Positions 2,381 to 21,026 are shown, counted from the first letter of the stretch. The stretch: 32,000 bases of DNA from Chlamydiales bacterium (GCA_965261025.1 OZ253438.1:450001-482000); one strand, 5' to 3'. Program-made: numbers and translations. Notes: a model not told the origin generated them from the letters alone.

Positions 2381-4477
2381 ATGCCAAATTTTAAAAAATC
2401 TAATAAAAGACAAAGCTATAAAAGCAAAATCATTCAAGCTCTTGCCTTGGGCTCTTTGAGTGAAAAAGAGCTTTTAAGTAAGCTCAAAGTTCCTTCCTCT
2501 TGCTATAAAGCCTTTTATCGAGAAATCAAAGGGCTTTTGCAAGAAAAAGTCCTATTTTCTCGTGATAAGAGATATACGCTTTTACAAAAAGAAAAAAAGG
2601 TTATAGGAACTCTTTCTGTTCACCCAAGAGGGTTTGGCTTTGTATCTCCAAGAAATAAAAAGGAGTTTTCCAAAGATGTTTTCATCCCACGAAAATTTAT
2701 GAAAGGAGCTGTAGATGAGGATCTAGTAGAGGTAGAAATAAAAGAAACTCCTTCTAAAAAGGGTTTTGAAGGAAAGATTTCTCAAATTATAAAAAGAGGA
2801 AAAAAAAGATTACTGGGTACAGTTACCCTGAAAACAAATAAAGGATATTTACTCTTTGTTCCCTCTTTAAAAGAGGAAAGATCTGTCCTTTTGAAAGAAA
2901 CAAAAGAATCCTTACAAAAAGGAGATAGAGTAGTAGTAAATATCTGTAGTTGGGGAGGAGAAAAGGGCCCGATACAAACCAGTTTAGAAAGGAAAATAGG
3001 CTCTATTTTTGAGGCAAAAACGGATACAATAGCTGCTTTACAAGAGTTTTCTATAGAGGAAAATTTCCCCGAGGAAGTAAAAGATCAAGCCAAAAAATGG
3101 GGGCTTTTTGTTCGAGAAGAAGACAAAAAGGACCGGGTAGACTATACCCGCTTAAACACCATAACTATAGACCCTAAAACAGCTAAAGATTTTGATGATG
3201 CCATTTCTTTAGAAAAAGAAGCTTCGTGTATCCATTTGTATGTTCATATAGCGGACGTAGCCCACTATGTTAAATCGGGCTCGAAACTAGATAAAAAAGC
3301 TTTTGAAAGAGCTAATTCCACGTATTTTCCGGGAAAATGTATCCCCATGCTTCCGGAGAGTTTATCCAATGGCCTTTGCAGTTTAAAACCGGACGTAATT
3401 CGTTTAGCTGTAACCGTAAAAATGAGTTTTTCCTTAGAAGGAGATTTGTTAGAGCAGAAGATAGAGCGCTCCTTCATTTTAAGCAAAAAACGCTTTTCCT
3501 ATGAAGAAGCTTTTGCTGTATTACAAAATAGGGAAAAAAGTTCTTACCTTCCCCTTCTAAAGGATTTAGTTTTTCTGTGTATGCTTTTAAAAAAGAAAAG
3601 GCAAGAAAGAGGTAGTATTGAGTTTGCTCTTCCTGAAGCGCAAATTCTCCTAGATGAAAATGAGAGTCCCAGAGGGATTGAAATTCATGAATATGACATT
3701 ACTCACCAAATGATAGAAGAATTTATGTTGAAAGCAAATGAAGTAGTGGCTACGACTCTTCATAAAAAAGGGCTTTCGCTTATTTTCCGGGTTCATCAGA
3801 GCCCTTCTTCGGAGAGCTTAGAAGACTTTTATCAAACTGTACGTATTTTGGGGTTTTCTCTTCCTAATTCTCCTTCTACAAGGGATTTACAAAAACTATT
3901 TTTACAAGCAAAAGACTCTCCTTTTTTTCACAGGCTTTCTGTGGCTTTTATCCGTAGTATGAAACTGGCTCTTTATTCCCCTGATAATATAGGACACTAT
4001 GGACTTGCTTTAACTCATTACACTCATTTTACCAGCCCCATAAGAAGATACTCTGATCTTGTTATTAGCCGTTTGTTATTTCAAGAACCTTTTGAAGGAG
4101 ATCTAGCTAAAATTGCAAAGCACTGCTCTGAGAAAGAAAGAGTCTCCATGAAAGCAGAACAAAATGTAGTCTTTTTAAAAAAACTTCGCCTCCTAAGAGG
4201 ATATTTCAAAGAAAATCCTAAAAGGACCTACAAAGCTACTATAACTAAAATAAAACCATCGCATTTATTCTTTGAGCTAGATGATTTCTTTTTTGAAGGG
4301 AGTTTTTCTTTTTCTGATATAGATGTAGATTATTTCGAATTTATAGAAGAAAAAGCCCTTTGGTTAGGATCAAAAAAGGGCATTTCTTTAGCACAGGGAG
4401 ATAAACTTTTAGTAGGGATAAAGACTATTGATCTAATCCATCAAGAAGCTTTTTTTTTATTTTATAATCTCGTCTGA
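2381..4477 (+). CDS. rnr: Ribonuclease R (RNase II/VacB family 3'-5' exoribonuclease)
   Basis: The RNB domain motifs DPKTAKDFDDAIS and HYGLALTHYTHFTSPIRRYSDLV are present. There is an N-terminal cold-shock-like HPRGFGFV and a C-terminal S1-like region. Length is 698 aa. Confidence 0.95.
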   Translation: MPNFKKSNKRQSYKSKIIQALALGSLSEKELLSKLKVPSSCYKAFYREIKGLLQEKVLFSRDKRYTLLQKEKKVIGTLSVHPRGFGFVSPRNKKEFSKDVFIPRKFMKGAVDEDLVEVEIKETPSKKGFEGKISQIIKRGKKRLLGTVTLKTNKGYLLFVPSLKEERSVLLKETKESLQKGDRVVVNICSWGGEKGPIQTSLERKIGSIFEAKTDTIAALQEFSIEENFPEEVKDQAKKWGLFVREEDKKDRVDYTRLNTITIDPKTAKDFDDAISLEKEASCIHLYVHIADVAHYVKSGSKLDKKAFERANSTYFPGKCIPMLPESLSNGLCSLKPDVIRLAVTVKMSFSLEGDLLEQKIERSFILSKKRFSYEEAFAVLQNREKSSYLPLLKDLVFLCMLLKKKRQERGSIEFALPEAQILLDENESPRGIEIHEYDITHQMIEEFMLKANEVVATTLHKKGLSLIFRVHQSPSSESLEDFYQTVRILGFSLPNSPSTRDLQKLFLQAKDSPFFHRLSVAFIRSMKLALYSPDNIGHYGLALTHYTHFTSPIRRYSDLVISRLLFQEPFEGDLAKIAKHCSEKERVSMKAEQNVVFLKKLRLLRGYFKENPKRTYKATITKIKPSHLFFELDDFFFEGSFSFSDIDVDYFEFIEEKALWLGSKKGISLAQGDKLLVGIKTIDLIHQEAFFLFYNLV

Positions 4478-4496
4478 TTCCTTTGCTTATCTCCAC

Positions 4497-4988
4497 TCAA
4501 AAATACGAAGTATGAACAAAGAGGTTTCTCTTAGAAAAAGAACGCATCTTTCTTCTTAGATCGGCAGCTTGATATCTTTTTTTTTCTTCTTCCGTCTGAG
4601 GAACCACCTTAGGTATCCGAACAGGATTTGCTTCTTTATCTACCGCTGAATAGGTAAAATAGGCGGATAGAATATCTTTTTCCTGCAGAAGGCGAAAATC
4701 CTCTGCTACTACTTTTAATCCTATTTCCATATAGCTATCCCAAACTCGATTAATACAAGCTTTAGCAAGTAAAAGGTCTTGTTCTAAAATAGGATGGAAA
4801 AATTGTAAAGAATCAATACCGAGAAAAATGCACCTAACTCCTGCATGCTTTTGTGCCAGTTGCAAGGAAAATGTGGAAAGCTCCTCAAGTAAAGAAACAG
4901 ATAAAGAATTGTTCTTTTTTAAAGGTAAAGAAAGCTTTTTCTGAACCGCGGAAAAAGAAACAGGCTTTTCCTCGCAAGCATTTTCCAT
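4497..4988 (-). CDS. Hotdog-fold acyl-CoA thioesterase-like protein (divergent)
   Basis: GIDSLQFFHPI ... SAYFTYSAVDKEANPVRIPKVVPQTEEEKKRYQAADLRRKMR follows the YciA/ACOT-type pattern (vD.i.F..P ... ftfVAvD..g.P..vP.l.p.t.eE...y..A..Rr). The N-terminal part is divergent. A GGGAG Shine-Dalgarno lies 4 nt upstream of the ATG. Confidence 0.5.
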   Translation of the reverse strand: MENACEEKPVSFSAVQKKLSLPLKKNNSLSVSLLEELSTFSLQLAQKHAGVRCIFLGIDSLQFFHPILEQDLLLAKACINRVWDSYMEIGLKVVAEDFRLLQEKDILSAYFTYSAVDKEANPVRIPKVVPQTEEEKKRYQAADLRRKMRSFSKRNLFVHTSYF

Positions 4989-5121
4989 GTTACTCCCTTT
5001 TTCTGTTTCCTATATTCAAGCTTCGATTTTTTGAAAAGACAGAATCTTTTTCTTCTTTGAAATTTTTTTAAAAAAAAAAGGCAAGTTACTAATAACAAGA
5101 TAATTAAATTAGAAATCCCCC

Positions 5122-5161
5122 AAAACAGAAAAAGAGGAGACAGCCGAAGCTACCTCCTCTT
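5122..5161 (-). terminator. Rho-independent terminator of the rplM-rpsI operon
   Basis: The minus-strand RNA reads AAGAGGAGGUAGC-UUCG-GCUGUCUCCUCUU. This is a 13-bp stem (2 G-U pairs) capped by a UUCG tetraloop and followed by UUUCUGUUUU. It starts 25 nt downstream of the rpsI stop. Confidence 0.7.
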
Positions 5162-5185
5162 GAAATCAGAATAAACAGCGGAAAA

Positions 5186-5584
5186 TTATCGCTTAGAGTA
5201 TTGAAACCTCTTCCTGGCTTTGGCTCTGCCATATTTTTTCCTCTCCTTCCTTCTAGGATCCCTGGTAAGATAACCAAGCTCTTTTAATTCTTTCCGAAGA
5301 GTTTCATCTTTACAAACTAATGCTCTAGAAATCCCAAGGCGAGTAGCTACAGCCTGGGCTGCAACACCCCCTCCTTTGGCACGGATGATCAGATCAAACT
5401 GGCCTAAATAACCAGCTCTTACCAAAGGATCTAAAATCTGGTTCCTCTGAACTTCCGAAGGAAAATACTCCTTCATTTCTTTACCATTGATATCCACTTT
5501 TCCTGTCCCTGGCCGAATGCGAACTGCAGAAACCGCAGTCTTTCTTCTCCCTATTCCAATAATATCTTCACTTTTGTTGCTCAT
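5186..5584 (-). CDS. rpsI: 30S ribosomal protein S9
   Basis: GGGVAAQAVATRLGISRAL and the C-terminal RDPRRKERKKYGRAKARKRFQYSKR are the classic S9 signatures. Length is 132 aa. Confidence 0.97.
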   Translation of the reverse strand: MSNKSEDIIGIGRRKTAVSAVRIRPGTGKVDINGKEMKEYFPSEVQRNQILDPLVRAGYLGQFDLIIRAKGGGVAAQAVATRLGISRALVCKDETLRKELKELGYLTRDPRRKERKKYGRAKARKRFQYSKR

Positions 5585-5591
5585 GTAATCC

Positions 5592-6053
5592 TCAGATGTT
5601 TGCTGTGATAGGTTTCTGCGCCTGTAGGCAATGCTTTTCGTCTTTGTATATATGAAGTTTTTTGATTTGCTTTCTTCCCAAACGAGTCTTAGGAAGCATT
5701 CCCTTAACTGCGTGCCAGAGAATATATTCCGGTTTTTTTTCTTTCATAGTAGCATAGGGAATTTCTTTTAATCCCCCTATATAACCCGTATAGGAGCGAT
5801 AAAGCTTCTGCTGCTCTTTACTTCCTGTGACGTGCACCTTTGCTGCATTAACCACTATTACTCCATCTCCCGTATCCACGTTAGGGGTGAAATCTGGCTT
5901 GTGTTTCCCCCTGAGGACTTTAGCAATTTCAGAAGCAAGACGCCCTAAAGTTTTCCCTTGAGCATCAAACAAATACCATCTTCTATTTGCAAGAGCCTCT
6001 TCTTTAGAAACAAACTGGGTAATTTTTTTCGGCGCTTTTACAGAACAATTCAT
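5592..6053 (-). CDS. rplM: 50S ribosomal protein L13
   Basis: [47 protein letters not shown] is the L13 signature. I chose the ATG at 6053 (153 aa, normal L13 length) over the TTG at 6113 in the ORF track, which adds 20 non-homologous residues. Confidence 0.93.
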
Positions 6054-6160
6054 AAGTAGCTCTTTCTTAAATATTCGCTCTAAAGGATAGCGATTCGTAG
6101 TTTTTTTTGCCAAGATTTTTATGCAGAAGGCTTAAACGCTTAATAAAATTCAAATATTTC

Positions 6161-6188
6161 ATAATAGCGCTACTTTAAGATCTATCAA
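6161..6188 (-). promoter_or_regulatory. Candidate sigma-70/66-type promoter for rplM-rpsI
   Basis: The minus strand reads TTGATA (6188-6183), a 16-nt spacer, then TATTAT (6166-6161). This implies a leader of about 100 nt to the ATG at 6053. The background is AT-rich, so a chance match is plausible. Confidence 0.3.
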
Positions 6189-6294
6189 AATTTAAGAAAA
6201 ATGAGCTAAACAGACCTATTATCTTCTTGGAAAAAGGGGGCAACAAGAAAAAAATTTATAGATTTTTGTTTTTAAATTGATAAAAACCCTGCTT

Positions 6295-6333
6295 TTTAAT
6301 CCCCTCTTCTTCTAAGAAGAAGAGGGGATTAAA
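6295..6333. repeat. Perfect 39-nt palindrome (18-bp stem, 3-nt loop) immediately downstream of the 591-aa gene; possible terminator or protein-binding site
   Basis: TTTAATCCCCTCTTCTTC-TAA-GAAGAAGAGGGGATTAAA has no mismatch. It begins 13 nt after the stop at 6346. Neither strand has an immediately adjacent U-tract. On the minus strand a T5 run follows about 10 nt later. Confidence 0.6.
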
Positions 6334-6345
6334 TCATACTAAGTC

Positions 6346-8121
6346 CTATATTTCCTTTGCTCTACTTACACTCCCATCCAAGTTCATTTCGAGAGGAAAC
6401 TTTTCAGAGGAAATATTTGTTCTAGGAAAAGTTAGCTCAAATTCAAAAAGACCTGTTTGTTTAAATCTATGCCTTCGAGACTCCGCGAGTTGTACAAAAC
6501 CATCGAAGCCCTTCTGGGTATTACAAATAGACTGTATCTTTTCAAAATAGGTTGTAATTCTATTTTCAAAAGCGCTTTCCCATCCATTATTTCCAGTAAG
6601 CCAGTTGGTCAAAAATTCATGTTCTGCAGATCCCTCTATTTTGGCATTCTTCGAGTTTTGAATATTTTCTACAAAACTCTTATCCAAAGACGCACCCTGA
6701 TCTCCTGCAGTAATCTCAAGAGGAACATAGTGTTCTAACTTTGAACGTTTTAATGAGTGTATTGGATTCTGAAAATCAACCATTAAAATACAAGCAGCTA
6801 ATCTCCTACTAATGATTTCTCGATGAATCATCTTATCTAATAAATCGATATCTTCAAAAGCAGGTTCAGGAACAAAAAAGGCAAAATGCGTATCACCAGG
6901 AATATTGACCGTTCCTGAACGAAGAGAAAAGTCAAACTTGGATAGGGCTTGCTCATAAATTGTACGACTGACTTGAGCCCGGTCAACAATAGGAATGAGT
7001 CCTGTTTTTTCCAAAGCAAAAAAATTAGCAAAAAAGGTAAAAGGAAGAGTAAGTTGAGCTTTTTGAGACTGAGAAGAATCGGGTGAGCTGATTAGATTCA
7101 AATTGGTAGTAGATAAGATTTGCCTTAGTAGATCATTAGGACGCGTTATTGTTTTTCCATCCGACCCTATGGCGTGATCGATTCGGCTTTCATTCCAGGC
7201 AGAAATTCCTGCTTTAAACTGGATTTCAAAGCGGTCTGCTTTTTTCCTATTTGTAAAGTACTCGGTACTAACAAAGGGATCATTTTCCGAAAAAATTTTT
7301 GAGAAAATTGTTGCCTCTGAACTATTCCAATGCTGCCAAGGAGAGCGAAGCTCCTTCATTACAGGTCCTCCATTAACGTGACCTGAAAAAGGACCCTTTG
7401 CTCGTGTCTTAGGATCTAGCGCATGAAAACCATTTCCAGACCAAATCCAAAAACCTTGTAACCGCTGATAAAAATTATAGGATCGGCTTTTGTTATCCCA
7501 GCTCATAAGCTGTAGAAACTGCCTTGAAGAATTAACACTAGTCCCTGTACTAACTAGAATGTCAAGACCAATACCGGACGTAGCCTTTGCATTTAAAACA
7601 AGACGGGCTGTCTGATCCACATTATCTGCATTTCTTCTCCAGGCAATTTGCCCGTTTTCAGCAATTAAAAAAACGTCAATTTCTTCAATTTCTTTTAATC
7701 TGTCCAGTTGACTTTTTATCTGCTCCATCGTGAGAGGAAAGAACCCTTTTTTTAAAAAAAGATTGGCGAAAGGATCGTTGATTGAGTTCTCAACTTCCTC
7801 CGAAGACATGGCTTTAGGCAAACCCTGATCCATGCCAACAATGAATTTATAAACCACCTTTCTGGAAGCAGAAGGATCAAAGCGAGTAGGCCCCATTGGC
7901 GCCTCTTCTTCGGGAGGTAATACCCCCAAATTCGAGAATTGGTGGATACTTGAAAAGTCTCTTCGTAAACTAGAAAAAGAGTTTCCTACTCTTGAGAGAA
8001 AATATCCAGAAATAACTCTCTCTTTTCCCTTAAGGCCTTGTGAAAAATAAGAGTCGCCGGATATCAATCTTCCAAAAGTAAAAGCTGGGATCAACCTAGA
8101 GGTAATTGCATTAGTTAACAT
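6346..8121 (-). CDS. Hypothetical soluble protein 'B' (591 aa), family not recognised
   Basis: Long ORF. The start is set at ATG 8121 because AAGGAG (8133-8128) lies 6 nt upstream. The ORF-track start at 8208 has no RBS and runs through an upstream hairpin. No TM helix or signal peptide is present. Distinctive strings are FYQRLQGFWIWSGNGFHALDPKTRAKGPFSGHVNGGPVMKELRSPWQHWNS and GDTHFAFFVPEPAFEDIDLL. Confidence 0.8.
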   Translation of the reverse strand: MLTNAITSRLIPAFTFGRLISGDSYFSQGLKGKERVISGYFLSRVGNSFSSLRRDFSSIHQFSNLGVLPPEEEAPMGPTRFDPSASRKVVYKFIVGMDQGLPKAMSSEEVENSINDPFANLFLKKGFFPLTMEQIKSQLDRLKEIEEIDVFLIAENGQIAWRRNADNVDQTARLVLNAKATSGIGLDILVSTGTSVNSSRQFLQLMSWDNKSRSYNFYQRLQGFWIWSGNGFHALDPKTRAKGPFSGHVNGGPVMKELRSPWQHWNSSEATIFSKIFSENDPFVSTEYFTNRKKADRFEIQFKAGISAWNESRIDHAIGSDGKTITRPNDLLRQILSTTNLNLISSPDSSQSQKAQLTLPFTFFANFFALEKTGLIPIVDRAQVSRTIYEQALSKFDFSLRSGTVNIPGDTHFAFFVPEPAFEDIDLLDKMIHREIISRRLAACILMVDFQNPIHSLKRSKLEHYVPLEITAGDQGASLDKSFVENIQNSKNAKIEGSAEHEFLTNWLTGNNGWESAFENRITTYFEKIQSICNTQKGFDGFVQLAESRRHRFKQTGLFEFELTFPRTNISSEKFPLEMNLDGSVSRAKEI

Positions 8122-8150
8122 CAAATTCTCCTTTGAATTCTTTTTGTGTT

Positions 8151-8193
8151 GGTAAAAAGCCCAGTTTTTCTTCATAAAGAAAAAATAACTGGG
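8151..8193 (-). terminator. Intercistronic hairpin plus T5 between genes A and B (attenuator, partial terminator or mRNA-stability element)
   Basis: The minus-strand RNA reads CCCAGUUAUUUUUUCUUUAUGAAGAAAAACUGGG. It forms a 7-bp base, one mismatch, then 6 more pairs including 2 G-U, around a 6-nt loop. CUUUUU follows directly. It ends only about 18 nt before the Shine-Dalgarno of gene B. Confidence 0.4.
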
Positions 8194-8307
8194 CACAATT
8201 AATAGCAACGGAACTTGTCCTGCAGCCTAAAAGCATGCCAAAAAGTCCCCTAACAGAATCTTTATAGCTCTCAAGCTCTGTATACAAAACAAAGCCTGAA
8301 ATAACTC

Positions 8308-9645
8308 CTAACTATTCTGATCAAAATTATCTAAACGAGTTGAAAATCTGTATGGCTGTTCCCCAGTGCTTTTTATTTCAGCTGCTTCATTTATAGGAGC
8401 AACACTTCTTCCCTGAAGGGTTACACATCCAAACTTAACTACATTAGACGGATCAAAATTCTGAGCAATCCCAGTTAGTTTAATCCGAACAAAATCTGCA
8501 ATTTGTCCTCCAAATTGAATTGGAGCTCCATTGATCTTAATATCACCTACTTTAAAACCCTTACTTTCAGGAACTTCAAAAATAGCCCGAACAGGACTCT
8601 CCTCATCTCCTCTTACAATTTTCCAGTAATCTCTAGAATCTGAGCCATCAGGTGTTTTCCATCCTTGAGGGGAAAAGGTATCAAAATAGAGTCCAACAGG
8701 ATCTTTAAGAGCCACCATCGCTCCTTGTCTTGTTAAAGCATTTACCTGAGCGCCAATGTGAGGATCACTATTTCTTTCCGGTTGACCATACCTACCACAC
8801 GAAATCAATTCTTGCTGGTTTTCTAAAATCCGTCCGTTAACTTCTCGAACCATACTTGATCCTGCCGCAAGCTCAATTTCTGCAAAAAGGCTATTATTTC
8901 TCTGAATCAGATGCATAGCCCCTCTTCCATTTGTGCCGCTATTCCACTTATTCCGAGGTTCATATTTCCCATTTTTAAATAGGTCATCTTGAACAACTTG
9001 ATCGCCAATAAACTCTTTGTAAATTTCAACTACCTTTTTTGGGTTCACTTCACCTAAAAAGTCCCAATACTCGGGTCCTTCACAAGTAAAATCAACTCTT
9101 GTAATTTTTCCAGTAAGATCTCTTGTTACACTCCATTCACAATACTCATCTTGAACATCTCTAGAACGATCTGCTACCTTCCATCTTACACTGTCGGTTG
9201 GGTATCTCTGTTTAATAATTCTTGGAAACCCAATCCAGGAAATAACTGCCTCTGCATAATCACTGGCTTTTTCTGTTGTTCGAGGATTAAAAACCTGAGG
9301 CCTTGGAGCATTATTTAATATCTTTCTTCCATCTGGAGTTTTATCAAACCCTTTTTTTACGACTTCGATAGCTTCGTTGATAAAATTTCGACTCCAGTTT
9401 TGCTTTTGTGCTTTTGTAAGATCATTCAAGTTCCCTGGAGGAGCAAACTCTTGAACAACTGTAGACATTTTTCTAAGCGAAGGGGGTGAGTTTAAATCCT
9501 TCAAGAAAGGAAAAAAAGTGGTAGCTACAGAATTTGTAGCATTTGTAACTACTTTTTCAGAAGAAGGCGAGGAATTTGATAGTCCACATGCTATGGATCT
9601 TGTAAAGCAACCTTTCCCTGCTGATGAAATTGTTGAAATAAGCAT
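8308..9645 (-). CDS. Hypothetical soluble protein 'A' (445 aa), family not recognised
   Basis: The ATG at 9645 is preceded by AAGGAG (9656-9651) at 5-nt spacing. No TM helix or Sec signal is present. Distinctive strings are QDEYCEWSV, FTCEGPEYWDF, HLIQRNNSLFAEIELAAG, CGRYGQPERNSDPHIG and KDPVGLYFD. Confidence 0.85.
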   Translation of the reverse strand: MLISTISSAGKGCFTRSIACGLSNSSPSSEKVVTNATNSVATTFFPFLKDLNSPPSLRKMSTVVQEFAPPGNLNDLTKAQKQNWSRNFINEAIEVVKKGFDKTPDGRKILNNAPRPQVFNPRTTEKASDYAEAVISWIGFPRIIKQRYPTDSVRWKVADRSRDVQDEYCEWSVTRDLTGKITRVDFTCEGPEYWDFLGEVNPKKVVEIYKEFIGDQVVQDDLFKNGKYEPRNKWNSGTNGRGAMHLIQRNNSLFAEIELAAGSSMVREVNGRILENQQELISCGRYGQPERNSDPHIGAQVNALTRQGAMVALKDPVGLYFDTFSPQGWKTPDGSDSRDYWKIVRGDEESPVRAIFEVPESKGFKVGDIKINGAPIQFGGQIADFVRIKLTGIAQNFDPSNVVKFGCVTLQGRSVAPINEAAEIKSTGEQPYRFSTRLDNFDQNS

Positions 9646-9907
9646 AAAAACTCCTTGAAAATTAATATGTTAAAAATCTCAAAAAAAATTTTTTACCTTA
9701 AGGTTTTTTTAAAAACCGGGGAGATTTTCATAAAAAAAAATATATAAATCAATAATTTTAACCTTATTTTAGGAAAAGCTTTTGATAAAAGGCTCCTTTT
9801 AGCAACAGACTCATATTGACTTGTCTGATAGCTACAAAATCCCCCTTGTCAGAAAGCAAAAGCTTCTATTACAATCCTTAAAATCTCACCTCAAAAGGGC
9901 CTATCTT

Positions 9908-11263
9908 ATGAAGAAGTTGAAAACTTTCCATATCCGGACTTATGGCTGTCAAATGAATGAGCTGGACACAGAGGTCATGGTAGGACAGCTTTCTAGGAGG
10001 GGGTTAAGCCTGGTAAAAGAAGAAACAGAGGCCGACCTGGTCATTTACAATACCTGCTCTATTCGAGATCTTGCAGAGAGAAAGGTCATGGGGAAGTTGG
10101 GTCAATTAGGCAGAGGGAAGAAAAAGTCTGTTATAGGGCTTACCGGTTGCATGGCTATGGCTAAAAAAGACCTCTTATTTCGTAAATTTCCTCATCTTGA
10201 TTTCATAATAGGAACAAATAATCTGACAGATTTAGATTCAGTGTTAGATGAAGTTCTTTATACAGAAAAACAGGTGATAAAAACAGAAGATCGTTTCGAG
10301 GAAAACTTGGACTATTTTGTAGCTAAAAGGCAGGATCCTTTAAAAGCTTTTGTTTCTATCATCCGAGGATGTGATAAGTTTTGCACCTATTGCGTTGTTC
10401 CCTACACTAGAGGAAAAGAGGTATCTAGACATTTTGAAGATATCGTAAAAGAGTGTCGAATGTTAGTAGATCAGGGGTATAAAGAGATTACCTTGCTAGG
10501 TCAAAATGTGAATAGTTATGGAAAAGACCATCCTGAATGGAATTGTCTTTTCCATGACCTCTTATACAAATTGGATAAAATCAATGGCTTAAAAAGGGTT
10601 CGCTTTATGACCTCTCACCCCATTGATATTACTAGGGAGCTAATGTATGCCCTAAGAGACCTTCCTTCTCTTTGTAATCTGGTCCATTTTCCGGTACAAG
10701 CAGGCTCTAATCGGATTCTTCGCAAGATGCACCGGATTTACACCAAAGAACAATACTTAGAAAAAGTACACCTTTTAAAGGAAATAGTTCCTGATGTTGC
10801 TTTAGGTACGGACATCATCGTAGGATTTCCTACTGAAACAGAAGAGGAGTTTTTACAAACCTACCAGCTATTTGAACAGGTAGGCTATTCTGTTGCCTTC
10901 ATGTATACTTATAGCCCTAGAAAAGGAACTCCTGCTATGAGATGGAAAGATGATATCCCCGAAGAAGTCAAAGAAGAGAGACTTCAAAGACTTATGGAAC
11001 TATATCATAGAGTAGGTAGTCAAGAGAGGAGCGCTTTTTTAGGAAAGGAAGTTGAAGTTTTGGTAGAAAGATTTAATCGAGATCAAAAAAGACTAAAGGG
11101 TCGCACTCGCTGCTGGAAAAAAGTGATCTTTGAAGGAAAAGAGGAGTGGATTGGTACTTTTCAGAAAGTGAAAATCCACAGCTTTCATCACCAGACTCTG
11201 CTAGGTTCTGTAGTACAAGCGGATTCTTGTCAGAAAAAAAAGCGAGCTTTTGCCTCAGCTTAG
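9908..11263 (+). CDS. miaB: tRNA-2-methylthio-N6-dimethylallyladenosine synthase MiaB (radical SAM methylthiotransferase)
   Basis: Begins MKKLKTFHIRTYGCQMNELD, the N-terminal UPF0004 domain. The radical-SAM cluster motif is GCDKFCTYCVVPYTRG, and a C-terminal TRAM region is present. The ATG at 9908 fits homologous N-termini better than the TTG at 9821. Confidence 0.92.
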   Translation: MKKLKTFHIRTYGCQMNELDTEVMVGQLSRRGLSLVKEETEADLVIYNTCSIRDLAERKVMGKLGQLGRGKKKSVIGLTGCMAMAKKDLLFRKFPHLDFIIGTNNLTDLDSVLDEVLYTEKQVIKTEDRFEENLDYFVAKRQDPLKAFVSIIRGCDKFCTYCVVPYTRGKEVSRHFEDIVKECRMLVDQGYKEITLLGQNVNSYGKDHPEWNCLFHDLLYKLDKINGLKRVRFMTSHPIDITRELMYALRDLPSLCNLVHFPVQAGSNRILRKMHRIYTKEQYLEKVHLLKEIVPDVALGTDIIVGFPTETEEEFLQTYQLFEQVGYSVAFMYTYSPRKGTPAMRWKDDIPEEVKEERLQRLMELYHRVGSQERSAFLGKEVEVLVERFNRDQKRLKGRTRCWKKVIFEGKEEWIGTFQKVKIHSFHHQTLLGSVVQADSCQKKKRAFASA

Positions 11264-12316
11264 CGCTTTCTTCTTCGGAAAAACCCATAGCCAAAAACCA
11301 AAGAGCAAAAAGGGAACGCTTAGAACCTGCCCCATATTCAAGAATCCCGAAAAGAACAGGCTCTGTTCCTCTTTGAAAAATTCAATAAGAAAGCGAAAAG
11401 AAAATAATAAGCAAAGAAGGGACCCTGCTGTTTTACCAGAAAAAACCCTCTTCTTGAAGAAGCATGAAAAAAGAAAGAACAGAAAGAAGTAAAAAAATGC
11501 CTCGTAAAGCTGAGCTGGATGCCTAGGGGCTGGTAAGGATCCATTTAGAGGATTTTCAAAAACAATAGCCCAAGGCACCGTAGTTACCGTACCCAATACC
11601 TCTTGATTAAAAAAATTGCCCAACCGGATCGATCCTGCAATAAAAAGAGAAGGCAATACCATAAGATCCAAAAGAACTTTCCAAGAAATTCCCTTTTCTT
11701 TCCGAATAAATACATACCCTGCAAGGAATACCCCCACTACAGCTCCATGACTTGCAAACCCTCTTCCTTGAAAAAGCTCCCAGGGGGCTTTTATGTAAGA
11801 AAAAAAGTTCTCATAGAATAAAAAATGACCCAGCTTTGCTCCTATGATAGTACCTAAAACTACGTAAAGAAGAAGCTTATCTACAAAACGGGTTGATCTC
11901 TTAGAAAGAGTTAACACATAAGGAGAAAGAAAAAGATCCAAAAGCTCTCTGTTTTTAACTAATAGCGGAAGAGAAAGCACTCCTTTTTTACCAAAAGGGA
12001 GTTTTTGAAAAAGGTTTTCCTGTTTTAGAAGGTGATTAAGCATCGCTAAAACAGTCGTGGCGTTTCCTAGCTCATCTTTGGCAAAATGCTTTTTTAAAAG
12101 AAGTAGGATCTCCTTTTTTTGCAAAAGATCCTCTTCTGTAAAATAAGGTTTTTCTCTAAAAAATCCCTTTATTCTTCGTAAGAAAATAAGATATCCTAGG
12201 AAAAAGCCAGAGCCAAAGAAAAACCCATACCACAATATGGGCCAACCCATGATAGGAAGTATAAAGAGTTCTTTGGCTGGATTCCAATGTAGAAAACTAA
12301 ACGGAACTATAAACAT
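11255..12316 (-). CDS. lgt: Prolipoprotein diacylglyceryl transferase Lgt, with an unusually long insertion after TM1
   Basis: Carries the Lgt signatures GSIRLGNFFNQEVLGTVTTVPWAIVF, RHPAQLYEAFF and the FASHGAVVG region. At 353 aa it is longer than the roughly 270-290 aa that is typical. Confidence 0.9.
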   Translation of the reverse strand: MFIVPFSFLHWNPAKELFILPIMGWPILWYGFFFGSGFFLGYLIFLRRIKGFFREKPYFTEEDLLQKKEILLLLKKHFAKDELGNATTVLAMLNHLLKQENLFQKLPFGKKGVLSLPLLVKNRELLDLFLSPYVLTLSKRSTRFVDKLLLYVVLGTIIGAKLGHFLFYENFFSYIKAPWELFQGRGFASHGAVVGVFLAGYVFIRKEKGISWKVLLDLMVLPSLFIAGSIRLGNFFNQEVLGTVTTVPWAIVFENPLNGSLPAPRHPAQLYEAFFYFFLFFLFSCFFKKRVFSGKTAGSLLCLLFSFRFLIEFFKEEQSLFFSGFLNMGQVLSVPFLLFGFWLWVFPKKKALS

Positions 12317-12776: not shown

Positions 12777-13205
12777 CTATGTTTTTTTTCTTTCTTTTAT
12801 TGAAAACAAGATCGCCTTGTAAAAAGGATACGCTCCCATAAAAAGAGCCAGAGAAATAGCCCCATCTAAAAGCCCTATATAATCACTTCTTAAAGGAAGA
12901 TATTTTATTGCCATCCCCAATCCCATCATCAAAAAAAGCAAAAGAAGGGTCTTTTTAGGGAAAATCAATCCCAAAGAGAAATTTCCAGCAAAATTCTGGA
13001 TGAAAGAAACTCTTTTGAGGGCTCTCTTTTGTAATAAAAATTTTCCCTTAAGATATCCAAGGGTCATAAGACCGAGAAAACTTCCTATAAAAAAAGGTTC
13101 TTGAAAAGAAGACATACTAAGGCGGGCCATTCCTTTTCGAATAAGAAGAAAAGAAGAAAAACTCCACATAGCTGCATGAATGGCTAGTACAAGCTTTTTT
13201 CCCAC
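12777..13205 (-). CDS. Hypothetical small membrane protein (about 4 TM helices)
   Basis: Hydrophobic ORF. I favour the GTG at 13205, with GGGGGGAG 5 nt upstream, over the TTG at 13220. The start codon is uncertain and no family is recognised. Confidence 0.55.
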   Translation of the reverse strand: MGKKLVLAIHAAMWSFSSFLLIRKGMARLSMSSFQEPFFIGSFLGLMTLGYLKGKFLLQKRALKRVSFIQNFAGNFSLGLIFPKKTLLLLFLMMGLGMAIKYLPLRSDYIGLLDGAISLALFMGAYPFYKAILFSIKERKKT

Positions 13206-13324
13206 ATTCGCTCCCCCCAAAGACCCAAGAAAGAGAATTTACAAAAAAAAAGAAAAAGAAGCAAACTGAGTGAAACTATAGTAAAATATTTTTTGAAAAT
13301 TTTTCCTTCAAAAATGAGGTACTC

Positions 13325-14782: not shown

Positions 14783-15307
14783 TTATCTGGGCGTTCCGTC
14801 TGGATTTGAGAGCTGAGAGTTTTCCTCAAAATTCTCTTCCTGCTTCACATCTGCCTGCTTCTGTTTTATCGTTACCGGTTTTAGCGCAGCCCCCAAAGTA
14901 GCGGTGAGTAAAAGAAAAGCGGCGGTATATCTTGCCCCAGAGGCAAACAACCTAAACCCAAACTTCTTCGAGTAGGTTTTCAACTGATTCAGGTTTATTT
15001 CCCCATTATCGGATACCATATTTTTATCTTTAGCAAGAATAAGGCTTTGCACCTTGATAGAGCATATCGCACTTTTCTTGTTAAAAAAACGGATTTTCTT
15101 TCCTGCATTTTCTAAATAGTAAAAATTTAGTAAAAAGTTAGAAATGAGCTTATATTTTTTTATAACAGATAAAGACCTCTGAGCTACGCAGGAGATTTTA
15201 CTAGCAGTTTCGATATTTGTAACAGCTGTATTGGCATCTAGCTGACTGATTTCAGTGACGTAAGTGACAGTGCTCTCTTCCATTCCATGGTTTACAATAG
15301 AACTCAT
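14783..15307 (-). CDS. Hypothetical protein with a single C-terminal TM helix (tail-anchored type)
   Basis: 174-aa ORF with no signal peptide. One hydrophobic helix, YTAAFLLLTATLGAAL, lies near the C-terminus and is followed by an acidic tail. No family is recognised. Confidence 0.55.
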   Translation of the reverse strand: MSSIVNHGMEESTVTYVTEISQLDANTAVTNIETASKISCVAQRSLSVIKKYKLISNFLLNFYYLENAGKKIRFFNKKSAICSIKVQSLILAKDKNMVSDNGEINLNQLKTYSKKFGFRLFASGARYTAAFLLLTATLGAALKPVTIKQKQADVKQEENFEENSQLSNPDGTPR

Positions 15308-15420: not shown

Positions 15421-16224
15421 CTAAAAAGAAAAGGGAAGTAAATAGCTTATTATAAAAGAATTAACGTCCTTTGGCCCCCTTTTAGACAGAACTCGCCTTT
15501 CGTATTCTAGGCGAATCGTTCCCCAAACTCCCAAGCGATATCCATAACGAAACTTTACATCGAGGGCTTTTTGACGAACTCTTCCATATCCTTTAAATCT
15601 ATCAATATCGAGACGCGTTTGCTTACCATATCCGTGGATTCCCTCTACGAAAAAGGCCCATTTGTGCTCATCTTGTAGGTTCCCCTCCAGAGCAAAAACG
15701 GCTTTTACCCAGGGAGATCCTAAATTAGCTATTCCCACAGAAGCAAAAGCCCAAGTTCGAAATCGCCAAAACTGAAAAGAATCCCATTCTTTTCCCAAAG
15801 AAAAGTTCCCTTCAAACTCTATATTTCCATGATAAGCAGAGCTGATATCTCTTACACTTTTCTCCGAAACAAAGCGAGCATCTAATCCTGTTGCAAAACT
15901 AAAAGCATCTCCTACAATATCATCCATCCAAAGATATCTAGCCTGAAAAGCTGTGCTTCGAAAACTAAAGTCTTGTCTTGGAGTATGGGCAAACTCTAAA
16001 TCAGCATCTACACTCCATTCAGGAGAAAAAGAAAAATCTAAAGCAGTAAAGAGGAGTTGATCATTAGAAGGGCTTTTTAAAGGAACTAAAGCTCCCTGTA
16101 CTCTGCTATAGTGACTATAGCGATAGCCAGAGAGAAAATGAAACTCATAAACATCCCCAAACCAAGGCTGTTTTTCCAAGGCAGATAGAGAAAAAACAAG
16201 AAAAAAGCACGCTAAAAACTTCAT
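15421..16224 (-). CDS. Putative outer-membrane beta-barrel protein
   Basis: The Sec signal is [17 protein letters not shown]. Alternating hydrophobic beta-strand patterns occur (e.g. [21 protein letters not shown]). The protein ends in an aromatic ...YLLPFSF terminus typical of BamA substrates. Its ATG overlaps the trxB stop (ATGA at 16221-16224). Confidence 0.65.
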
Positions 16225-18248: not shown

Positions 18249-21026
18249 ATGCAAAGGATCTTGCGGAAAGTTTTTGGGATTTATCCAGGAGAGGGAGGGA
18301 CCACTTTTCGTTTTGCCAGGCTTTCCACCTATTGGGCTTTTTCTACTCTTTGTCTTGAAAACTTAGCAGATGGGTTATTCCTGCAAAAGGTAGGAGCGCA
18401 CGCTTTACCTAAGGTTTATCTGTCTACGGCCTTAATCTTAATTTTAACCTCTTCCGTCATAGTTTATGCTTTAAGAATCGTAAGTCCCTACCAAATTTTA
18501 CAGAAAGTCATTCTAGCAGGATTTTTCATTAGCGCCTCTTTTCTTTTTGTCCTATCTATGGAGAGCCCCCCTCCTTGTACCTGGTATATTCTCAAAATTT
18601 TCAGCCGCCTTTTCTTTTCTGTTTTCTTAGCTTGTGGTTGGACTTTCATAGACCAGTATCATGACCTACAAGAGGCTAAAAGGGTTTACTCTCTCTACAG
18701 CGCTGCCTATTTTTTAGGAATTATGTTATCAGGAGTAGTAATTAATCTTTTATTATCTAGATCAGGCTATATATTTCTTTATGGTATTGCCTGCTTTACT
18801 ATTTTACTCTCCTTTTTTGAAGTAAAAAATATTGTAGAAAAAGTCCCTGCTGTCCACGATGATACTATAGAGGGAGTATTCACAGGGGATCGAAATGGAA
18901 TCGCTGTTCTTATAGGGCTTGTAAAAAAATCTCCTTATACGCTTGTTCTATTAGCCCTCAGCCTTTTAGTACAATTTATCATGATTACCACTGAATTCAA
19001 CTACATGGAGATTTTCCAAAAAGCCTTTCAGGTAAAAAACCTGGATACAGCTACACATATCTCTGGATTCTTAGCAAAAAGTAGAGCTGCTATTTCTGCA
19101 GGAAATATTTTAATAGGAGCGTTTTTATTTTCTCCCTTCATGCGAAGGCTTGGACTAAATAATATCCTTCTGATTCCTCCCCTGTTTTTGGGATTTGTGT
19201 ATTGCGGTATGTTGATGCAAAACTCCCTTTTTATAGGGATCTTAGGTCTTATAGCAGTAGATGGAGTACTATTTACAATAGAGGATAATAGTTTCAATCT
19301 TTTGACTAAAGCAGTCCCCGCTAAGCTAAAGTCTAAGGTGCGTATTATTAATGACTCGTTTTTTGAGCCTATTGGGATGCTGATTTGTTCTGCCTTTTTA
19401 TTTTGTTTCGAAAAGCATAGTCGTCTTATGGGGCTTGCCTTTTCTTTTCTCTTTTTTACTTTAGCTATTTTACTAAGAAACCTCTATATAAAAGCTATTT
19501 TCATCAACCTAAAGGAAAACGCAATTCATTTTGAAAGAAAACTTCATAATTGGCTGGAAAAACTAGGGAAAAAAGAATCTAAAGAAATCAAAAAAGACCT
19601 GTTAAAATCTCTTTCTTCTTCTTCTGAAGAAGAAAGACTCTTGGGAGTAGAGGGGCTCCTGGCTTATAACGATCCTCTTTTGCTAAAGCGAATTCTACCT
19701 GCTTTGGAAACTCTTTCTTCTAAAAATAAAGAAGCTTTTCTGGCATTAATTGAAAAAAACCCCTTGAAAAATCATCCTTCTGTTTTAGAAAAAGTAAACA
19801 GCTGGGTAGAGGACTCTGAGCTTTTTGAAAAGGCTTACTTCTTTTTAGCAAAAAAAGGACTCCTTCACCCCGAAAAAGTAACCGATGATTTAGAATCAAA
19901 AAATCTTTTCTTAAGAGGAGCTGCCATTCTCACTTTAAAAAAGTCTCAAGCCTTACAAAATACAGAACAAGCTTCTTTAAACCGAACTATTGCTCAAAAA
20001 GAGTCTGATCTTCTCCTTTCCTCTGAAAATCCTTCTGAGGTACTTTTAGGGTTAAAAGTAGCAAAAGAAATCTTTGGCTCTGATGGCTGCTTAAAAATTT
20101 TCCCTCTCTTAAACCACAGTAATTTAGATATAAAAAAAGAAGCAAGCCTTGTACTTTCTGAAATCGTAGATAAATCCTGTATAGCATACCTTCCTAAGCT
20201 TATTGAGGAAATACAAGAGATAAAAGAAGGAGAAATTCGAAAAAACTGCCTAGTTGCCTTGGGGAAAATAGGGGATTCTACTGCCGTAAAAGAAATTTTA
20301 CAGGCCTCTGTTAATTTCCGTCCGTGTGAAAAAAGACTCGTAGAGCAGATCCTTTTACAAATGGGATTAAAAACGGTCCCTACTCTTTTATCTTTGGTAA
20401 GATCTAAAGAAATCCACTATACATGCCGTATCCAAGCAGCAAAGATTTTGGCCCATCTCTCTCTTCCTCAATTAAGAGCTCATTTGGATGAAATTATCTC
20501 AATAGAAAAAGAAAAAGCGTATTTTTATTTTTTCCACGCCCATACCATACAGAAAACCCATCCAGAATATGATCTGGTTCTCTTAGAAGAGACGCTGCAA
20601 AGTCGTTTTCAAGCCTCATTTGATTTTATTATTCATCTCTTGGGAGCAGTAGGTTCTATCGAAGATTCAGAACTATTAGTTCACTCTTTACATAGCAAAA
20701 ACGAAAAAGTGCACAGTAACGCCATAGAAACCTTAGAAAAAACTTGTGATTTTCAGATTTTTTCCTGGCTTTTACCTTTGATAGAAAAAATTCCCTTAGA
20801 AGAAAAACTTTCCGCCTTTCACAAGAACTACCAAGACTATAGCCCTCTTTCCTTACAAGAGCTTTTATACACTCTATATGAATCTCCTTCTCTCTCAGAT
20901 AAAATTACTGCAGCGCATTTAAAAGCTACTTTAAAAGTTCCTAATTGGAAAGAAACCTTGAGGCAGCAAATGAAAACAAATGAAGAAGCCTTTTACCAAT
21001 TTGCCTATGAGTTATTAGAAAAATGA
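18249..21026 (+). CDS. Polytopic membrane transporter-like domain (MFS/nucleotide-transporter-like, tentative) fused to a C-terminal HEAT/PBS-lyase repeat domain
   Basis: About 430 aa contain at least 10 hydrophobic helices, followed by about 490 aa of soluble alpha-repeat. HEAT-type units include EERLLGVEGLLAYNDPLLLKRILPAL, IRKNCLVALGKIGDSTAVKEILQA and NEKVHSNAIETLEKT. Total length is 925 aa. Confidence 0.75.
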   Translation: MQRILRKVFGIYPGEGGTTFRFARLSTYWAFSTLCLENLADGLFLQKVGAHALPKVYLSTALILILTSSVIVYALRIVSPYQILQKVILAGFFISASFLFVLSMESPPPCTWYILKIFSRLFFSVFLACGWTFIDQYHDLQEAKRVYSLYSAAYFLGIMLSGVVINLLLSRSGYIFLYGIACFTILLSFFEVKNIVEKVPAVHDDTIEGVFTGDRNGIAVLIGLVKKSPYTLVLLALSLLVQFIMITTEFNYMEIFQKAFQVKNLDTATHISGFLAKSRAAISAGNILIGAFLFSPFMRRLGLNNILLIPPLFLGFVYCGMLMQNSLFIGILGLIAVDGVLFTIEDNSFNLLTKAVPAKLKSKVRIINDSFFEPIGMLICSAFLFCFEKHSRLMGLAFSFLFFTLAILLRNLYIKAIFINLKENAIHFERKLHNWLEKLGKKESKEIKKDLLKSLSSSSEEERLLGVEGLLAYNDPLLLKRILPALETLSSKNKEAFLALIEKNPLKNHPSVLEKVNSWVEDSELFEKAYFFLAKKGLLHPEKVTDDLESKNLFLRGAAILTLKKSQALQNTEQASLNRTIAQKESDLLLSSENPSEVLLGLKVAKEIFGSDGCLKIFPLLNHSNLDIKKEASLVLSEIVDKSCIAYLPKLIEEIQEIKEGEIRKNCLVALGKIGDSTAVKEILQASVNFRPCEKRLVEQILLQMGLKTVPTLLSLVRSKEIHYTCRIQAAKILAHLSLPQLRAHLDEIISIEKEKAYFYFFHAHTIQKTHPEYDLVLLEETLQSRFQASFDFIIHLLGAVGSIEDSELLVHSLHSKNEKVHSNAIETLEKTCDFQIFSWLLPLIEKIPLEEKLSAFHKNYQDYSPLSLQELLYTLYESPSLSDKITAAHLKATLKVPNWKETLRQQMKTNEEAFYQFAYELLEK

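Follow-up and report, generated by a model that had tools for sequence, protein, structure and literature searches.

A DUF8225 protein and its probable haem partner as a mobile two-gene module in a Chlamydiales bacterium

The window analysed here, a whole stretch of 32,000 nucleotides from a Chlamydiales bacterium (GCA_965261025.1 OZ253438.1:450001-482000), carries two co-directional minus-strand genes, termed A and B, between rplM-rpsI and miaB. An original prediction, made from the DNA alone, had singled them out as a functionally linked accessory module of two large and unassignable proteins. Comparative analysis supported this reading overall and refined it in three respects: A belongs to the Pfam family DUF8225 (PF26676), B is probably a haem protein, and the location among translation genes is incidental. 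The pair may represent a mobile two-protein module in which a DUF8225 protein and a haem partner, which is B in the window and a DyP-type peroxidase in a sister clade, take part in the oxidation of some substrate, a reading based on sequence comparison to which we assign about even chances. The two genes are:

6346..8121, minus strand: gene B, 591 amino acids from the ATG at 8121; the whole open reading frame (ORF) spans 6346..8208
8308..9645, minus strand: gene A, 445 amino acids with an ATG start, from the ORF call

Scanning GTDB at one genome per species revealed 464 relatives of A, from which 80 loci were taken as a sample. Hidden Markov model searches of six-frame ORFs showed that B lies directly beside A, on the same strand, in 78 of the 80 loci, and the two loci without an adjacent B are a contig of 1.2 kb and a contig that ends just past A. 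The same adjacency was further seen in L087, L089, and L093-L096, and the co-occurrence of both genes as neighbours in unrelated genomes, which had been proposed as a check, turned out to be strict adjacency across phyla. Gene order is B then A in almost all phyla, often with overlapping stop and start codons; A comes first in the window and in the other chlamydia-like loci, L001, L087, and L089. In addition, B and A are fused into a single polypeptide in P0173, L062, L076, P0237, P0380, P0407, P0440, P0453, and P0485, and a triple fusion of B, A, and phospholipase D (PLD) was found in P0400; independent B-A fusion events number at least nine. The pairwise distances of A and B are strongly correlated over 79 pairs (r = 0.97, with 0 of 999 Mantel permutations as high), and the plasmids with B are the same 13 as those with A of the main clade. 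Clustering of all neighbour ORFs of the 80 loci revealed no conserved third gene, no family being present in more than nine loci. Adjacency, recurrent fusion, correlated distances, and matching plasmid sets all argue for the proposed functional link between A and B, which appears to be as strong as comparative genomics allows.

The A-B pair is a horizontally mobile accessory module. Its hosts include Streptomyces and Kitasatospora (often 50-200 kb from the chromosome ends), myxobacteria, Planctomycetota, Acidobacteriota, Nitrospira, Bacteroidota, many alpha-proteobacterial plasmids, and, among chlamydiae, Neochlamydia and Parachlamydiaceae; in Chryseobacterium, the pair abuts an IS3 transposase. 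In the closest relatives, the pairs were found elsewhere, beside ZnuABC genes (L087), rpsF-rpsR-rplI (L089), or two M4 peptidase genes (L001), so that the position between rplM-rpsI and miaB is incidental. The accessory nature that had been proposed is thus evident from the patchy spread, the plasmids, the Streptomyces chromosome arms, the transposases, and the differing contexts in close relatives. No homologue of A was detected in a scan of IMG/VR viral contigs or in phage records searched with tblastn. Recent horizontal import of the pair into this genome was considered and rejected, since the GC content of A and B, overall and at third codon positions, matches that of the adjoining genes. 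The window copy is an ordinary family member.

Both genes are real rather than chance ORFs, because many homologues exist and the window copies keep every family-invariant residue. For A, a word-indexed search with the window protein as query yielded 2303 clusters at 90% identity, and the identical database protein (P0001) and all 120 homologues listed carry PF26676, the conserved domain being located at about residues 62-410. The B family comprises unclassified proteins of about 520 amino acids, whose conserved domain corresponds to about residues 88-588 of window B. It was represented by 114 homologues in a word-indexed search and by at least 1417 clusters at 50% identity (E <= 1e-3; 515 at E <= 1e-30) in a profile search, performed as a full HMMER scan of 1.84 billion representatives, and none of the 1417 clusters carries a Pfam family. 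Every named member of either family is annotated as 'hypothetical protein'. Local copies of Pfam and NCBIfam gave no match at E <= 1 for A or B, the empty result for A being due to the absence of the PF26676 model from the local Pfam copy. The earlier description of both proteins as unassignable is therefore apt for B, which has no Pfam or NCBIfam family, and does not hold for A, which is catalogued. A and B were also considered as paralogues of each other, which was rejected (hhalign probability 0.12).

Alignments revealed 55 invariant columns among 50 sequences of A and 27 among 64 sequences of B (29-52% identity). In both families the invariant residues are mostly Asp, Glu, Arg, His, Tyr, or Trp, a pattern that fits putative active or ligand-binding sites and not structural proteins. 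The most conserved stretch of A is:

9133..9153, minus strand: QDEYCEW motif of A, residues 165-171, in the alignments the best-conserved signature of the DUF8225 superfamily

D166, E167, Y168, and W171 of this motif are invariant across the B-paired clade and the DyP-paired clade described below, and the core kept in both clades also includes R175, E189, Y193, H245, R291, S293, D294, P295, and the PVGLY stretch.

Confident AlphaFold2 models were obtained for A (predicted local distance difference test (pLDDT) 86.6, predicted template modelling score (pTM) 0.81) and for B (pLDDT 87.6, pTM 0.85; C-terminal half all-helical), in which disorder is confined to the N-termini (A residues 1-49, B residues 1-70). 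Foldseek found no match at E <= 0.001 for A in the PDB or BFVD, with template modelling (TM) scores of at most 0.11 among the matches listed; for B, 172 PDB matches were returned at E <= 10, none of them at E <= 0.001, again with TM scores of at most 0.11 among those listed. Single-sequence and profile searches of the PDB with A and B gave only noise, the best matches being an RpiR fragment (E = 0.03) and DnaA (E = 0.57). The sequence, profile, and structure searches thus returned no confident hit to a well-characterised family, which is the outcome that had been named as refuting the original prediction. Literature searches with PF26676, DUF8225, and accession or locus names found no paper on the A-B family, and those on DyP neighbourhoods, DyPs with protein-derived cofactors, and peroxidases in conflict systems likewise found nothing on it. 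The biochemistry, which had been called unknown, is consistent with this lack of a characterised homologue by sequence or fold and of any literature. With A catalogued only as a domain of unknown function and B uncatalogued, the family is an undescribed kind of system.

The main clue to the nature of B comes from a single conserved site:

7354..7395, minus strand: GPFSGHVNGGPVMK motif of B, residues 243-256, with the invariant His248 and Met255

His248, the sole invariant His of B, is kept without exception in the 64 aligned sequences and the 307 scored homologues. Forty-seven of these 307 homologues read GCFxCHxNGxxxMK at the site, that is, they contain a CxxCH haem-c motif whose His aligns with His248. 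By a crude rule, export signals (signal peptide, anchor, or lipobox) were assigned to 28 of 42 CxxCH-containing B proteins versus 5 of 164 others, and in several proteins that the rule appears to have missed, a signal peptide is visible. The CxxCH-containing proteins form one clade in a neighbour-joining tree, and the significance of the association between CxxCH and signal peptides (Fisher p = 3e-19) is overstated because of this single origin. The comparison identifies the His248 equivalent as the putative haem ligand of the CxxCH clade, and, given the homology of the two residues, His248 is likely to act as a non-covalent haem ligand in the cytoplasmic clade to which window B belongs. B is probably a haem protein, which agrees with the DyP partner swap. 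A role of window B as a c-type cytochrome was rejected, since the protein has GPFSGH at the motif and no signal peptide; the CxxCH motif and export signals of c-type cytochromes occur only in the sister clade of 47 homologues. The cytochrome families of Pfam gave no match even for the CxxCH variants. That neither window protein contains CxxCH or a signal peptide had been stated in the original prediction, and none was found in either. In keeping with a haem partner, redox genes recur around the pair in other genomes, including those for flavin adenine dinucleotide (FAD) oxidases, a LodA-like oxidase, galactose-oxidase-like proteins, an animal haem peroxidase, and a RoxA-like cytochrome, and in P0370 a ferritin-like domain (PF12902) is fused to the N-terminus of B.

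A second clue is that B can be replaced by a known haem peroxidase. A tblastn search of plasmids detected distant DUF8225 genes (31-40% identity) in Bacillus thuringiensis, B. cereus, Mycetohabitans, Ralstonia solanacearum, and Nostoc. The gene that directly follows them encodes a protein of 510-555 amino acids with the Pfam domains DyP_N and Dyp_perox_C, which RefSeq labels as Dyp-type peroxidase in B. thuringiensis and Mycetohabitans and as hypothetical protein in Ralstonia and Nostoc. The same arrangement of DUF8225 followed by DyP is also present in B. altitudinis, Paenibacillus polymyxa, and one metagenome contig, the DyPs overall being 510-564 amino acids long. With the B. thuringiensis A protein as query, the DyP-paired DUF8225 clade comprises 1343 clusters at 90% identity, a list that overlaps in part with the 2303 clusters above. 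In four aligned DyPs (B. thuringiensis, Mycetohabitans, Ralstonia, and Nostoc), the GxxDG motif of the distal Asp and the AHIRK motif of the proximal His are kept, and no twin-arginine translocation signals were found. The B profile found nothing in the DUF8225-DyP loci. DUF8225 is thus the constant element, with B or a haem peroxidase beside it.

Pairs of DUF8225 and long DyP (Bacillus, Paenibacillus, Priestia, Ralstonia, Mycetohabitans, and Nostoc) resemble the window in that their DUF8225 gene is a homologue of A (30-40% identity) that keeps its invariant core, DUF8225 comes first, the coupled partner has about 510-564 amino acids, both proteins are cytoplasmic, and the context is mobile; as in the A-B loci, Endonuclease_NS or His-phosphatase genes recur close by. 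They differ in the partner, which is a bona fide DyP, whereas B has no detectable sequence or fold kinship with this family. DyP-type peroxidases share with B the slot beside DUF8225 and a similar size, and the one invariant His of B, together with its invariant Asp and Arg, would be compatible with a haem pocket as in DyP; DyP is, however, built on a ferredoxin-like barrel, in contrast to the all-helical C-terminal half of the B model. A reading of B as a divergent DyP was rejected (no Pfam match at E <= 1; hhalign probability 0.15 against the B. thuringiensis DyP), and no DyP occurs among the 50 Foldseek PDB matches listed for B.

Two further DUF8225 neighbourhoods were observed on plasmids. 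On plasmid 1 of Paracoccus denitrificans PD1222 (L082 4794-9809), a model organism and genetically tractable strain, the gene for a DUF8225-like protein of 577 amino acids is placed between a tyrosinase gene and a gene for a protein of 502 amino acids without a Pfam family, which is a third type of DUF8225 partner arrangement. On a Nostoc plasmid (L085 1-8738), the DUF8225-DyP pair is preceded by genes for two ferritin-like (PF12902) proteins, a radical SAM protein, and an FAD monooxygenase.

The partner swap and the probable haem nature of B together make haem-dependent oxidation with peroxide or O2 appear the most likely chemistry. In such a mechanism, A and B would be two subunits or two tightly coupled enzymes of a mobile accessory module. 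A would form the conserved core, with its invariant Asp, Glu, Arg, Tyr, Trp, and His as a putative active or ligand site, and B would be a haem protein with His248 as axial ligand and, in the cytoplasmic form, with its haem held non-covalently, filling the genomic and functional slot that a long and catalytically intact DyP takes in the sister clade. The oxidation may act on a small molecule that A handles or on A's own residues, and conflict between organisms, cell damage, or stress, rather than central metabolism, would be the physiological setting. A bolder version, which we consider unlikely, is that the pair is a new class of two-component haem enzymes made from two folds without a solved relative, with B as a non-homologous replacement of DyP and with a reactive or toxic product or a protein-derived cofactor as the outcome, and that it serves as a mobile weapon or defence in at least ten phyla, sometimes licensed by a protease and accompanied by nucleases or PLD.

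Several points weigh against haem-dependent oxidation by an A-B complex. B resembles neither DyP nor any other known haem protein in sequence or fold, the fold comparison having covered the PDB for both proteins and BFVD for A only. Window B reads PFSGH at the motif site and has no CxxCH, and the association of CxxCH with export is one evolutionary event and not many. The redox neighbours found in Streptomyces chromosome arms may partly mirror the general make-up of those regions. In addition, in three loci with exported, CxxCH-containing B (L043 5926-9104, L093 773-3489, and L094 2001-4655), A has no signal peptide and starts directly at the conserved FDPPG motif, an arrangement that would be hard to reconcile with an obligate complex. 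P0485 is a fusion of signal-peptide B (with CxxCH) to A. Either A reaches the periplasm by another way, or A and B need not share a compartment.

The physiological setting of the module is suggested by the hydrolases that are wired to it in other genomes. A is fused to two PLDc_2 domains in L049, L060, L062, and L080 (Pyrinomonadaceae, Microvirga, Azospirillum, and Blastocatellia), a homologue of A on a Mesorhizobium plasmid is annotated as phospholipase D-like, and an N-terminal His_Phos_1 domain is fused to A in Parachlamydiaceae. In a metagenome-assembled genome of Planctomycetota (L041 7926-15058), an ORF of 1408 amino acids combines DUF8225 with Trypsin_2, Exo_endo_phos, and Endonuclease_NS and is followed by an EAD1-Trypsin_2 gene and then a second EAD1 gene, an architecture that looks like a multi-effector conflict system. 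Near the DUF8225-DyP pairs, genes for Endonuclease_NS and His-phosphatase (Bacillus) or Endonuclease_NS and patatin (Paenibacillus) were detected.

In 18 of 78 loci, from about six or seven independent lineages, a peptidase gene is either fused to the pair or its direct neighbour on the same strand. S8 peptidase is the commonest upstream neighbour (14 of 70), and the adjacent S8 proteins have no signal peptides; the other peptidase partners are a giant S8+S41 protein, a caspase, and, downstream of A in a Streptomyces subclade, Trypsin_2+Endonuclease_1. A four-gene set of cytoplasmic S8, B, DUF8225, and Trypsin_2 + Endonuclease_1 occurs in Streptomyces loci L042, L044, L047, and L058 (about 4100-11400). 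L045, L055, L065, and L072 contain the Trypsin_2 gene with no S8 gene detected, L061 contains the S8 gene only, and the Trypsin_2 protein of L065 has a second domain that has no Pfam match and is hydrolase-like by eye. M4 peptidase genes flank the pair at 680-810 bp in L001, and in L096 1-12069 (GCA_036704275.1) a divergent CHAT-nSTAND1-WD40 giant and an M4 peptidase are followed by B, DUF8225, and a RoxA-like dihaem cytochrome c of 989 amino acids; neighbours of conflict type and of haem-oxygenase type thus share one locus. According to the sections of Evans et al. 2025 (PMC12642450) used here, stand-alone defence systems acquire protease-effector modules with trypsin, caspase, or S8 proteases, and clades of antiviral systems pair with differing protease classes (trypsin-like, caspase-like, and S8). 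Around a quarter of the A-B loci, with peptidases of classes that differ between clades and often a nuclease as well, resemble these modules, whose effectors include gasdermin, Pepco, EACC1, MBL, and alpha/beta-hydrolase; those sections name no effector family to which A or B belongs. No peptidase is present among the window neighbours (S9, L13, MiaB, Lgt, RlmH, and RNase R), so the window copy itself lacks the hallmark of a protease-effector module. The hydrolase and peptidase wiring in other genomes suggests a context of conflict or cell damage, and a role in conflict, damage, or stress may be proposed for the module on these genomic associations.

The same architectures could instead belong to an anti-invader defence or abortive-infection system, in which B, DyP, phospholipase D, nucleases, and peptidases would serve as exchangeable effectors of a conserved sensor or scaffold, A, and the bare pair would be the minimal form. 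We consider this, the main rival, somewhat unlikely. Such a system would account for the fusions of A to Trypsin_2/nuclease, PLDc_2, and His_Phos_1 domains, for the adjacent or fused peptidases and the S8 proteins without signal peptides, for the CHAT-nSTAND1 or nSTAND1 genes close by, and for the recurrence of Endonuclease_NS in both DUF8225 clades, and it is in line with the mobile, patchy distribution and with the likeness to protease-effector acquisition by defence systems in the sections of PMC12642450 used here. However, a search of PADLOC-DB 2.0 (5027 models) at E <= 1 gave no match for A, B, a B-A fusion, or the Streptomyces and Pirellula homologues, no NTPase or nucleic-acid-sensing domain is present, and in most loci, the window included, the bare pair stands alone. 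A haem peroxidase as a defence partner is without known precedent, the tight co-evolution and fusion of A and B resemble an enzyme complex more than a swappable effector, and a chlamydia-like bacterium with a genome as small as this contig of 1.42 Mb suggests would meet few phages.

If residues of A were themselves the target, A might be a substrate protein in which a protein-derived redox cofactor is formed from Tyr168, Cys169, and Trp171 of the DEYCEW stretch by the haem partner (B or DyP) or by tyrosinase, and mature A would then be the oxidase. The logic would be that of MauG and methylamine dehydrogenase (MADH) or of LodB and LodA; MauG and LodB are dedicated cofactor-maturation partners encoded beside their targets. 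As in these systems, an oxidising enzyme would stand beside a non-homologous partner rich in conserved Tyr, Trp, and Cys, and no fewer than three kinds of oxidising enzyme (B, DyP, and tyrosinase) are found beside DUF8225, with the Tyr and Trp of DEYCEW invariant in both clades. The S8 peptidase, FAD monooxygenase, and radical SAM neighbours are what we take to be reminiscent of quinoprotein maturation operons such as the QHNDH system. The pairs differ from A-B in that no homology links them to it and in that A and B are often fused, and a maturase is unlikely to be fused to its target as often as B is to A. Moreover, Cys169 is replaced by Leu in Mycetohabitans, and A lacks homology to any quinoprotein, no Pfam or PDB sequence match having been found to LodA/GoxA or MADH-type quinoproteins. 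On balance, this alternative appears improbable.

Equally improbable is a role for the two window proteins as chlamydial effectors that are secreted, for example by type III secretion, with their disordered N-termini as the signal and a eukaryotic host as the place of action. This idea derives from the N-terminal extensions, predicted to be disordered, of both proteins (residues 1-59 of A and 1 to about 85 of B, the latter encoded by 7867-8121), which would be compatible with a type III secretion signal, and from the following elements of A:

9469..9645, minus strand: N-terminal extension of A, residues 1-59, Ser/Thr-rich and predicted to be disordered
9651..9656, minus strand: Shine-Dalgarno AAGGAG of A, 5 nt upstream of the ATG

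The extension, in which residues 1-49 have pLDDT values below 50, is absent from close homologues of A (389-390 amino acids), which begin 8-10 residues ahead of an FxPPG motif. Met60 (ATG at 9468) was considered as the true start and rejected, since it has no Shine-Dalgarno sequence upstream, while the 445-amino-acid start has a strong one. The family is also enriched in eukaryote-associated bacteria (Neochlamydia, Parachlamydiaceae, Mycetohabitans, Rhizobium, Ralstonia, and B. thuringiensis); yet most of its members belong to free-living soil bacteria and have no such extension. Secretion would concern localisation only and would leave the biochemistry unexplained, and it is compatible with haem-dependent oxidation by the module. 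Finally, a housekeeping role in translation or tRNA modification, prompted by the position between rplM-rpsI and miaB alone, deserves hardly any credence: it is effectively refuted because the synteny is not conserved, the pair occupying unrelated contexts in the closest relatives and other phyla, with a patchy distribution and carriage on plasmids.

With regard to gene structure, the AAGGAG sequences that had been reported 5-6 nt ahead of both starts are present before the 445-amino-acid and 591-amino-acid ATGs, and all peptide strings quoted earlier were found in the A and B translations. The gene coordinates given earlier also stand, except for a left limit of 6295, which lies 51 nt past the stop codon of B (6346). 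The region between the two genes is:

8122..8307, minus strand: A-B spacer of 186 bp, with ATG 8175, TTG 8208, and AAGGAG at 8128-8133

B may start at ATG 8121 (591 amino acids), ATG 8175 (609 amino acids, as in the public database copy P0121), or the first TTG at 8208 (620 amino acids), and the true start is ambiguous because the first ~85 residues are unconserved. A scan of 6000-10000 for promoters and terminators revealed no signal above the shuffled background.

According to Pfam, the downstream neighbours of the pair are Ribosomal_S9 and Ribosomal_L13 and the upstream one is a divergent gene with UPF0004, Radical_SAM, and TRAM (MiaB type), with Lgt, RlmH, RNase R, FolD, and inositol monophosphatase further out, and the remaining genes of the window are housekeeping ones (TrxB-like, ProC, FabD, BamA, and LpxD). 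The miaB-type gene (ending at 11263) and lgt (ending at 11255) are convergent, and their 3' ends overlap by 9 bp (11255-11263). Four ORFs of 147-267 amino acids on the minus strand (4497-4988, 12777-13220, 14783-15307, and 15421-16224) have no Pfam family and probably encode lineage-specific hypothetical proteins. At 18249-21026 on the plus strand, an unusual fusion protein of 925 amino acids has an MFS transporter domain followed by C-terminal HEAT repeats. The window proteins that were looked up have no cluster mate at 90% identity, except for a fragment of 50 amino acids in ENA that clusters with RNase R.

The module is large and common, being found in Streptomyces, rhizobia, Bacillus, cyanobacteria, Planctomycetes, Acidobacteria, and environmental chlamydiae. 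The CxxCH variant and the DyP swap turn two hypothetical proteins into a concrete hypothesis, namely that B has a new haem-protein fold and acts together with DUF8225; if this is true, a new haem enzyme family and a function for a Pfam domain of unknown function would follow, and, given the wiring to proteases, nucleases, and PLD, an oxidative mechanism in bacterial conflict systems might emerge. Should the reading of the pair as a two-component haem weapon prove right, it would represent an undescribed oxidative effector arm of prokaryotic conflict systems. For this bacterium, whose chlamydial genome is reduced, the pair is among the few modules that are horizontally shared and not housekeeping.

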